Shown here: piece by piece, positions 47,208 through 47,415 of the stretch | Numbering within the stretch: position 1 is the stretch's first letter | Layout of the letters: each line of letters starts with the position of its first letter | Virus record (IMG/VR): IMGVR_UViG_3300032167_000022 | Source of the DNA: a virus | Reading direction: 5' to 3' (one strand) | DNA: 64,000 nucleotides | The notes under the pieces: generated by a model | The model's input: the letters and a program-made list of their open reading frames with translations, nothing else | Told to the model about the DNA's origin: nothing | The model's database searches: none | Made by a program: the position numbers and the translations under genes

Positions 47208-47302
47208 CGGCCCCGCTGGGATTTGAACCCAGAACTGCCTGCTCAGAACAGGACTTATTGCGGATTTAGAGTCCGGTGTTTTGCCGTTAAACTACGGGGC
47301 TA
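47208..47302 (-). tRNA. Amber-suppressor tRNA, anticodon CUA (reads UAG), type II scaffold with long variable arm
   Basis: Anticodon arm CCGGA-CTCTAAA-TCCGC with U33, C34U35A36 and A37. D-stem GTTT/AAAC. Variable arm about 25 nt (stem CCTG/CAGG). T-arm CTGGG-TTCAAAT-CCCAG. Acceptor AGCCCCG/CGGGGCC with an A1-C72 mismatch and G73. No CCA encoded. Sits immediately downstream of promoter 47371..47415. Confidence 0.7.
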
Positions 47303-47370
47303 TAAAATATCAAGATTTATTTGTTTGGATTCATCGGTCCTTTTTTATTGCTGTTAAAATCTTTTTTTAT

Positions 47371-47415
47371 TTTATATATATATTATAACATATTTTTATT
47401 AAATTGTCAAATTTT
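47371..47415 (-). promoter_or_regulatory. Sigma70 consensus promoter (TTGACA, 17 nt, TATAAT) driving the suppressor tRNA
   Basis: The reverse complement reads TTGACAATTTAATAAAAATATGTTATAAT. Confidence 0.6.

Follow-up and report, generated by a model that had tools for sequence, protein, structure and literature searches.

The 64,000-nt viral sequence IMGVR_UViG_3300032167_000022 from IMG/VR, which in its entirety is called the window here, carries on its minus strand a gene for a tRNA with the anticodon CUA, tRNA(CUA), with a promoter upstream and a predicted self-cleaving ribozyme directly downstream. The tRNA is 94 nt long from A1 to G73 (47208..47301, -) and includes a 27-nt insert between the anticodon stem and the T stem, which forms the extra arm that is the main subject of this analysis. 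ARAGORN places a tRNA(CUA) of 95 nt at 47207..47301 (-), the only one with CUA among the 23 tRNA genes that it finds in the window, all of them on the minus strand. The Rfam model RF00005 matches 47208..47301 (-) over its full length (model positions 1-71) with 53.7 bits against a gathering score of 29, and minimum free energy folding alone returns a five-arm cloverleaf at -28.6 kcal/mol. A BLAST search of the tRNA region against cultured phages returned generic tRNA matches only and no close relative.

On the minus strand, the 5′ half of the tRNA reads AGCCCCG-UA-GUUU-AACGGCA-AAAC-A-CCGGA-CUCUAAA-UCCGC and the 3′ half AAUAAGU-CCUG-UUCUGAG-CAGG-CAGUU-CUGGG-UUCAAAU-CCCAG-CGGGGCC-G. The acceptor stem AGCCCCG/CGGGGCC has an A1.C72 mismatch, and the D arm (GUUU/AAAC around a 7-nt loop that includes GG) and the T arm (CUGGG-UUCAAAU-CCCAG) are canonical. 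The decoding loop CUCUAAA (47265..47271, -) is a 7-nt loop that places the anticodon C34 U35 A36 (47269..47267) between U33 and a purine, A37, as is characteristic of an amber suppressor. The discriminator G73 at 47208 is followed by C-G-G-A, and no CCA is encoded. A first-pass annotation made from the sequence alone had described this anticodon loop, the A1-C72 mismatch, G73, the missing CCA, and the canonical D and T arms, and each of these holds, as does the fold under the covariance model that it had proposed as a check. Its estimate of about 25 nt for the variable arm caught the long insert and fell 2 nt short of its length. The coordinates that it gave, 47208-47415, take in both the tRNA and the promoter and miss the adjoining 3′ ribozyme (47206..47152). 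Tests for tRNA-Pyl (a 3-nt variable loop, a 6-bp anticodon stem, and no G18G19) and for tRNA-Sec or allo-tRNA (an 8/5, 9/4, 8/4, or 9/3 arrangement of acceptor and T stems) led us to reject these readings on structure, given the 7/5 arrangement, G18G19, and the GGUUCAAAUCC T loop; the ARAGORN label "Pyl" merely reflects the CUA anticodon.

The promoter, TTGACA-N14-TGU-TATAAT, lies upstream of the tRNA at 47410..47382 (-) and consists of a -35 hexamer of perfect consensus (TTGACA, 47405..47410, -) and an extended -10 element (TGTTATAAT, 47382..47390, -) at a 17-nt spacing. The hexamer belongs to a motif of 29 nt, TTGACA-(A-rich 14 nt)-TGnTATAAT, which occurs 13 times in the window at up to one mismatch, compared with 0.12 copies expected by chance, and which bears out the claim that the suppressor has a promoter of its own. 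All 13 copies are on the minus strand, spread over 2629-59590 (e.g., at 44782-44810, 48548-48576, 52070-52098, and 56459-56487). The window-wide scan found no copy on the plus-strand structural block, which suggests that a separate late promoter type is used there. Transcription of the tRNA would start about 7 nt downstream of the -10 element, giving a leader of about 75 nt. The same motif lies upstream of the suppressor in three related loci, L442, L445, and L455 (L-numbers denote loci from other viral contigs and from metagenomes that were used for comparison).

Directly 3′ of the tRNA, a hepatitis delta virus (HDV)-like ribozyme of the theta type is predicted at 47152..47206 (-), with the cut placed between C74 (47207) and G (47206). 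Its sequence, GGAUAUA/A/UACUUCC/U/CC/U/CC/UCGU/GG/UAUAUCU/GG/AUUGCG/CUAAAU/GGAAGUA, is modelled as a nested double pseudoknot and forms only canonical pairs in its helices (P1 7/7 with a G.U at the cleavage site, P2 7/7, P3, and P1.1), J4/2 begins with C, and the core columns are identical to those of two published theta ribozymes. A weak match to the Rfam model drz-agam-1 covers exactly 47153..47209 (17.7 bits, E 0.35). G1 of the ribozyme is 2 nt past G73 of a tRNA without CCA, which fits the placement of ±5 nt used as a criterion in the study that described these ribozymes at the 3′ ends of phage tRNAs, one fifth of which are amber suppressors (Kienbeck et al. 2024, PMC10879173). In that study, only 4.5% of the linked tRNAs encode CCA. 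Among the 23 window tRNAs, the ribozyme core follows only the suppressor, and CCA is absent only from the suppressor and one tRNA-Ile. The latter is a second copy of tRNA-Ile(GAU) at 55591-55663 (-), which has no ribozyme core on its 3′ side. Ribozymes also lie 3′ of relatives without CCA, namely L163/L174, in which P1 and P2 are fully compensated (in few sequences), and apparently L154 and L173. Most of the closest subgroup to the window tRNA encode CCA and have no ribozyme, and the ribozyme is thus an optional module of the suppressor gene, one whose predicted cut explains the missing CCA.

TAG is frequent inside genes of the window. When stops are limited to TAA and TGA, long frames with up to 11 in-frame TAG codons appear, and a tally of 22 genes gave 59 TAG beside 129 CAA and 113 CAG, with no in-frame TAG in the genes of replication and nucleotide metabolism. 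The codon is most abundant in an endolysin (VgrG3-like lysozyme, Amidase_2, and an SLH-like tail; 3436..5121, -), which has 11. A tail fibre (48577..50058, -) has 7, three long fibre-like structural genes (35823..42475, +) have 4, 1, and 3, and three genes at 59734..62352 (-), one of them a GT2 glycosyltransferase, have 7, 7, and 10. A flotillin-like gene at 7290..8768 has a single in-frame TAG. TAG is, on the evidence of these frames, a sense codon in this phage, since they are restored when it is read through, and the 59 in-frame TAG in conserved genes agree with the earlier identification of the tRNA as an amber suppressor in such a phage. No aminoacyl-tRNA synthetase was found among the window's open reading frames (ORFs) scanned.

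The amino acid inserted at UAG, which the first-pass annotation had left uncertain, was approached through homologues of the TAG-containing proteins. The endolysin has thousands of homologues, and at two near-invariant amidase columns that correspond to TAG in the window, Q is found in 116/119 and 117/119 of them, so that the homologue check proposed earlier gives a consistent residue. Over 15 informative TAG columns from the amidase and tail-fibre alignments, the summed mean BLOSUM62 score is 28.4 for Q, 14.4 for E, 10.5 for K, -1.2 for S, -17.1 for Y, and -26.4 for L. In the C-terminal module of the tail fibre, Q occupies 89/118 sequences at the TAG site of a paralogue, and the other sites show mixed polar residues. 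Two points count against taking these alignments at face value: recoded relatives, in which Q may simply reflect convention, are the source of many of the protein homologues (the homologue DNA that was fetched fails to give the database protein under table 11), and the check by codons covered four loci and one PDB protein. Owing to this risk of circularity, the codons of relatives were read directly. Relatives have CAA, which is two mutations away from TAG, at the window TAG sites 4656, 4227, 4137, and 4080; conversely, L003 has TAG at a site where the window has an ordinary Gln codon. The standard-code amidase PlyL, whose structure is solved (1yb0), has Gln at one window TAG site. When the codons facing the window TAGs were pooled, the tally (S 21, Q 17, K 14) proved an artefact of a single hypervariable MetK site (45470) and was discarded; this site was compared with about 80 loci and was the source of nearly all non-Q counts. 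At the flotillin TAG, the PDB comparison is uninformative, with F or R in eukaryotic flotillins, and a PDB search with the tail-fibre domain gave no real matches.

In homologues with standard codons for Gln, this residue thus stands opposite TAG of the phage, as expected for genetic code 15, and on these alignments and codons TAG is assigned to Gln. Of the phage tRNA-CUA assayed elsewhere, 28/29 insert Gln (PMC12636597). That UAG might instead stand for Glu, through a nondiscriminating glutamyl-tRNA synthetase (GluRS) without amidation, or for Lys is quite improbable in our judgment. E and K are the second- and third-best fits at the TAG columns, the paralogous fibre sites show E, E, and K, and the indirect pathway is frequent in Bacillota (PMC9976931). 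Against this stand the near-invariant Q columns of the amidase and the 89/118 Q at the paralogue site, and a weak 1:72 pair of the kind found in the window tRNA is what the amidotransferases and GluRS2 accept (PMC9976931). The same columns bear on the claim that the tRNA has a Ser-like (or Leu/Tyr-derived) identity: S, Y, and L all score negatively at them, and relatives use CAA for Q at the invariant columns.

That claim had been founded on the scaffold, which was described as type II. Pattern scans of viral contigs together with ARAGORN yielded 35 long CUA tRNAs in two classes. Five are genuine Ser-type amber suppressors from other viral contigs (L177, L175, L205, L216, and L170), with GGAGAG-type acceptors, G1-C72, a D region of 20-21 nt, and a tight variable helix of 6-7 bp with 1-nt linkers. 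The class to which the window tRNA belongs comprises 28 unique sequences, with a D region of 18-19 nt and with a tail of 4-7 nt after a short hairpin; many of its members have an acceptor of the form UGGGG...CCCCA-G-CCA, typical of tRNA-Gln. Covariation in the family alignment supports the cloverleaf, with 94.5% of cells paired, 21/25 pairs compensated, and 0/500 shuffles as good. The window's D region is 18 nt long, with a 4-bp stem and a 7-nt loop like that of the phage's own tRNA-Gln and shorter than the 20-21 nt of the Ser type. The tRNA-Gln(UUG), tRNA-Ser, tRNA-Leu, and tRNA-Tyr of the array were all found as separate genes, as the first-pass annotation had noted.

The bacterial Gln identity set consists of G73, U1-A72, G2-C71, G3-C70, G10, U35, G36, A37, and U38, and a weak first pair is also used by GluRS2 and the amidotransferases (PMC9976931). 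Across the 28 family sequences, pair 1:72 is UA in 10, AU in 1, GU in 1, unpaired in 16, and GC in none; 26/28 have G2-C71 and 27/28 have G10-C25, the window tRNA being among them in both cases; and the discriminator is G in 23 and A in 5. The window's A1.C72 is a weak first pair as in the Gln set, though not literally U1-A72. With A1.C72, G2-C71, G10, and G73 in a structure on which ARAGORN, RF00005, folding, and family covariation agree (47208..47301, -), the tRNA has a Gln-compatible core and not a class II scaffold. It does not match a class II tRNA-Ser, whose marks were taken to be G1-C72 and G2-C71, a D arm with a 3-bp stem and a long loop, and a tight variable helix whose linkers are only 1-2 nt: its own D region measures 18 nt, and the linkers of its hairpin are 7 and 5 nt.

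We therefore regard it as extremely improbable that the tRNA is a class II species for seryl-tRNA synthetase (or its Leu or Tyr counterpart) and that UAG means Ser, Leu, or Tyr. The long insert and G73 are what such a reading would draw on, together with the five Ser-type suppressors and with the nev-tRNAs, in which a class II scaffold can reportedly override the anticodon (PMC3333845). The type I D arm, the weak 1:72 pair, and the short arm with its 5-7-nt linkers are unlike the Ser type, and the type II assignment is abandoned here along with the Ser-like identity. A long arm is moreover no bar to Gln identity, since an amber tRNA-Ser has been converted to a Gln acceptor by changing pairs 1-72 and 3-70 (PMC9976931).

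Two variants of the suppressor gene were observed among the relatives. At L266:387-553 (-), a 73-nt tRNA(CUA) of ordinary length lies 5 nt from a long-arm tRNA(CUA), so that both designs occur together on one contig. At L456:1036-1472 (+), a long-arm suppressor is split inside its anticodon (…GGUCUCU / intron / AAAACCGU…), as is also the case at L459 and probably at L449. At L456, RF00028 identifies the insert as a group I intron (49.0 bits, E 2e-11; gathering score, 50), which represents a further maturation step ahead of the code switch.

The extra arm of the window tRNA, CCUG/UUCUGAG/CAGG (47238..47252, -), is a hairpin with a 4-bp stem and a 7-nt loop, joined by a 7-nt linker on its 5′ side and a 5-nt linker on its 3′ side. 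Its loop, UUCUGAG, is identical in form to the anticodon loop of tRNA-Gln(CUG). The decoding loop has U35 and A37 of the Gln set and A36 in place of G36; the extra-arm loop has C34 U35 G36 A37. Throughout the family, the arm is a hairpin of 2-5 bp with a 7-nt loop of the form N-U-Y-U-G-A-N, in which position 33 is U in 75%, position 34 is C or U, and positions 35, 36, and 37 are U in 28/28, G in 28/28, and A in 27/28, respectively. The closing pairs are canonical in 27/28, 27/28, and 21/28, with CG, GC, UA, AU, and UG all in use; the stems thus vary between members while the loop stays. At L433, the arm CGCC/CUCUGAA/GGUG has the window's unusual linkers and a fully compensated stem. Across the family, linker lengths span 0-7 and 3-9 nt.

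The conservation of this loop is not a property of variable arms in general. YUG[A/C] was found in 25/25 unique arms, compared with 0.29 in shuffles and with 8/85 ordinary Ser/Leu/Tyr variable arms, and CTG is the most frequent hairpin-centred triplet of all 64, occurring in 19 arms with the runner-up in 5. The arm heptamers CUCUGAA and UUCUGAG are genuine anticodon loops of phage tRNA-Gln(CUG), and none of 45 ordinary tRNA-Gln has such an arm. A metagenome scan in which the T arm and the 3′ strand of the acceptor were specified and the anticodon was left free recovered 31 distinct genes; the arm was present in 31/31 and the anticodon loop CUCUAAA in 28/31. An exact search of JGI metagenomes for the window's own extra arm found none. 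In a portion of a published table (PMC10879173, supplementary file 3, part 39), tRNAscan-SE threaded the extra arm as the anticodon arm and reported "Gln CTG, pseudo"; the article does not discuss the arm. Taken together, the loop and its conservation identify the extra arm as a miniature second anticodon arm that carries the cognate Gln anticodon (Y-U-G, followed by A37) and not as a class II arm.

Arms of the same design occur in two other kinds of phage tRNA with altered anticodons. Long opal suppressors were sought after CCA loops had been predicted for them, by scanning for CUUCAAA with a long spacer, and 16 unique tRNA(UCA) were found (L318-L423, e.g., L404:8971-9066 +). Most have an acceptor of the tRNA-Trp type (AGGGGC...GCCCCU-G), stems of 5-7 bp in their extra arms carry the loop CUCCAAA or GUCCAAA, and CCA is the top triplet in the arms, in 10/16 by a strict rule compared with 0.012 expected and visibly in 14/16. 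CUCCAAA is the genuine loop of tRNA-Trp in 33/38 phage tRNA-Trp. Similarly, tRNA-Ile(UAU) of 92-95 nt from three lineages (L129, L132, L136, L138, L140, L146, L149, L190, L191, and others, e.g., L190:4184-4275 +) have an extra arm in which a stem of 3-5 bp carries a 7-nt loop (CAGAUUA, CAGAUAA, and UAGAUGA) with GAU, the major Ile anticodon, at its centre. GAU loops are present in 3/3 of these lineages, compared with 0.015 expected per arm. In all three families, the arm, its 3′ linker (typically 3-7 nt), and the T arm resemble an original anticodon arm followed by its variable loop. Immediately 5′ of the triplet, all Ile arms have A instead of U33, and 25% of Gln arms have a base other than U; for this reason, the extra-arm loops look suited to recognition rather than decoding. 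The enzymes concerned, glutaminyl-, tryptophanyl-, and isoleucyl-tRNA synthetases (GlnRS, TrpRS, and IleRS), are class I synthetases that read the anticodon (PMC9976931).

That the arm takes part in decoding after all, in a two-headed tRNA whose arms exchange places and which reads UAG through the first and CAG/CAA through the second, seems improbable. The arms of L151, L249, and L279 and most arms of the UCA family do have a complete 5-bp stem and a 7-nt loop that contains U33 and A37, and it was the second arm that tRNAscan-SE took for "Gln CTG" in the portion of the published table cited above. Most arms of the CUA family are only 2-3 bp, however, the departures from U33 are incompatible with a decoding U-turn, and the phage already encodes a tRNA-Gln(UUG).

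It is quite likely, in our assessment, that the locus as a whole is a self-contained expression unit for a Gln-inserting amber suppressor of a TAG-recoded (code 15) phage. Transcription would be driven by the extended -10 promoter of the host sigma70/sigmaA type at 47410..47382, and the theta-type ribozyme would cut the 3′ end just after C74. As no CCA is encoded, this end would have to be healed and then completed by a CCA-adding enzyme. The mature tRNA would be charged with Gln by the host glutamine system and would read UAG in the genes for lysis and tail fibres, among others.

HDV-type cleavage leaves a 2′,3′-cyclic phosphate on the tRNA, and candidate genes for its repair are present in the window. 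A distant DRB0094-like RNA ligase is encoded at 21525..22931 (-; TIGR02306 E 5e-10, below the cutoff; PF09414), a YfcE-type phosphoesterase at 8794..9375 (-) and a Pnkp/PSTK-like P-loop kinase at 9347..9934 (-), both with weak NCBIfam matches below the cutoff, and a metallophosphatase at 10374-11057 (-), also below the curated cutoff. The kinase and phosphoesterase are possible end-healing enzymes for the cyclic phosphate and the ligase a possible trans-acting partner of the tRNA; ligases of the DRB0094 type are enriched 140-fold in theta-ribozyme phages (PMC10879173). These genes, the enrichment of the ligase, and the relatives with a true group I intron in the anticodon could also be taken to mean that the extra arm (or the first arm) is removed like an intron and the tRNA resealed by the phage RNA ligase together with a kinase/phosphatase. 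We consider this very improbable, given that the family has no conserved splice-site or bulge-helix-bulge motif, that its linkers vary over 0-7 and 3-9 nt, and that the arm fits a normal class II-like fold.

For the role of the arm in the suppressor, our tentative proposal is that it restores the U35-G36 determinants missing from CUA and would thereby uncouple decoding from identity. G36 serves both binding and recognition, and mutations of determinants cost up to 10^5-fold (PMC9976931). Extended to the three families, the proposal is that the hairpins of phage tRNAs with altered anticodons (CUA, UCA, and UAU) may show the cognate YUG, CCA, and GAU to the host GlnRS, TrpRS, and IleRS, perhaps through alternative stacking of the two arms; this too is put forward as a possibility that falls somewhat short of even.

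Several observations weigh against these proposals. GlnRS binds the inner face of the L-shaped tRNA, and a hairpin in the variable region normally points away from it. The reach of a 4-bp arm to the anticodon-binding domain is unexplained, though alternative stacking of the two arms may account for it. In a host without GlnRS, the base recognized by a GluRS of the B. subtilis type would be mainly a modified U34 (PMC9976931), and a CUG loop would have none to offer. The window tRNA has C3-G70 in place of the E. coli determinant G3-C70 (the family is split, with CG in 15 and GC in 13), and its decoding loop has A38 in place of the determinant U38. A crude nearest-neighbour typing of the cores by global alignment was noisy, with Gln in 14/38 and also Lys, Trp, and Met. 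The family scans for CUA and UCA required a long spacer, which biases the ratio of long to short suppressors. With regard to the expression unit, the ribozyme is 1 nt shorter at the P3′/P1′ junction than the published motif, its P3 consists of 2 G-C pairs, and neither it nor the window tRNA is present in the examined portions of the supplementary tables of PMC10879173.

There is a substantial chance, though again below one half, that the tRNA is a Gln amber suppressor whose extra arm is not a synthetase determinant and is either a conserved relic of a duplicated anticodon arm or an element with another purpose. It might help the tRNA to fold or stabilize it, be recognized by a phage factor or by an enzyme of modification or processing, shield the tRNA from host tRNA nucleases, or act as an antideterminant that prevents mischarging. 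The geometric difficulty with GlnRS speaks for this reading. The resemblance of the arm, its 4-6-nt 3′ linker, and the T arm to an original anticodon arm suggests an origin by insertion or duplication, and CUA suppressors of ordinary length exist and work, with both kinds at L266. A neutral relic, however, would not keep U35 and G36 in 28/28 while the stem pairs and the acceptor stems diverge. Each of the three families has independently retained the very triplet read by its class I synthetase (YUG, CCA, and GAU), and C or U at position 34 matches both Gln anticodons, CUG and UUG.

The host is probably a member of the Bacillota. Family members in genome bins lie on contigs labelled Oscillospiraceae, Acutalibacteraceae, Erysipelotrichaceae, "Mollicutes," and Bacillota; the assignment follows from these binned relatives, and the sigmaA-type extended -10 promoters and the SLH-type tail of the endolysin fit it.

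The suppressor tRNA, code 15, and the theta ribozyme are known kinds of elements, and the locus can be compared with each. It resembles the tRNA-Sup(CUA) loci of code 15 phages (crAss-like, Lak, Agate, and Phassvirus) in that an AT-rich phage carries a suppressor within a tRNA array, has TAG in lysis and structural genes with Gln as the inferred residue, and shows no synthetase among the ORFs scanned. The papers on these phages describe or assume ordinary Gln-like tRNAs and no long arm (bioRxiv 10.1101/2021.08.26.457843; PMC10607447; PMC9523058), in contrast to the 27-nt insert with its second anticodon-like hairpin in the window tRNA. The ribozyme shares with published theta ribozymes its position directly 3′ of a CCA-less suppressor, the G.U in P1, P2, the CCUCC..CG..GG core, the GG of P1.1, the GCUAA of J4/2, and a DRB0094-like ligase in the genome (PMC10879173); it differs in being 1 nt shorter at P3′/P1′ and in its predicted cut after C74. 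A host that is probably from the Bacillota makes the window phage a minority case in that study.

With E. coli tRNA-Gln and supE, the tRNA shares G73, a weak or open 1:72 pair, G2-C71, G10, U35, and A37, and the CUA anticodon is tolerated by GlnRS (PMC9976931). It differs in A1.C72 for U1-A72, C3-G70 for G3-C70, and A38 for U38, and in having G36 in the extra arm instead of the decoding anticodon. A stem-loop between the anticodon and T arms is common to the window tRNA and the class II tRNAs (Ser, Leu, and bacterial Tyr, as well as nev-tRNAs, allo-tRNAs, and supD-like tRNAs), and tRNA-Ser also has G73. In class II tRNAs, the arm is a tight helix joined by linkers of 1-2 nt, with a nonconserved loop and a matching long D loop, whereas the window family has 2-5-bp stems, linkers of up to 7 nt, a type I D arm, and a conserved loop. 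The closest parallel in presentation is with synthetase-bound mimics of anticodon arms, such as mRNA operators, in which a hairpin shows the cognate anticodon loop (PMC9976931). These operators lie in mRNAs and regulate translation; here, the putative mimic would sit inside a tRNA that decodes another codon. No description of a long-arm tRNA-Gln or an anticodon-mimic arm was found in the searchable literature, which does not cover most subscription journals. As far as that literature shows, a second arm with the cognate anticodon, recurring in three codon-reassigning tRNA families, is new.

How the suppressors of recoded phages are charged efficiently by host synthetases is an open question (bioRxiv 10.1101/2021.08.26.457843). 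GlnRS, TrpRS, and IleRS depend strongly on the anticodon, precisely the part that a suppressor must change, and a hairpin with the lost anticodon, arrived at independently in amber, opal, and AUA-reading phage tRNAs, offers a concrete hypothesis for charging. If this is correct, the hairpin would represent a novel type of tRNA identity element, in which identity and decoding reside on two arms of one tRNA and codons are reassigned without touching the host enzymes, and it would supply a design principle for genetic-code engineering. The arm also misleads annotation, having led to "Pyl" with ARAGORN, to "Gln CTG pseudo" with tRNAscan-SE, and to a Ser-type arm in the reading of the sequence, and long-arm suppressor genes have probably been undercounted in surveys of recoded phages.

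A tRNA-Ser at 55045-55133 (-) had been singled out as a possible second reader of UAG or of AGY codons. Its anticodon is ACU (Rfam, 56.6 bits), which cannot pair with UAG; for AGY the suggestion stands, as it is the sole reader of these codons in the window, where no GCU is found. AGT outnumbers AGC by 199 to 47 in the 22 window genes, and an ACU anticodon is present in 3/67 Ser tRNAs of other viral loci. A 65-nt tRNA-like sequence at 56919-56983 (-), possibly a tRNA that has been truncated or has degenerated, was detected by Rfam only (36 bits, model positions 4-67), ARAGORN having missed it. Farther away, an 803-amino-acid protein (30765-33176, -) has a domain make-up unusual for phages, with a Major Vault Protein shoulder, Vault_3 repeats, and Band_7. 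Strong NCBIfam matches point to an NAD+ synthase and a nicotinate phosphoribosyltransferase; these two and a DUF2828/DUF7788 protein are encoded at 12391-14466 (-) and 43184-44701 (-).

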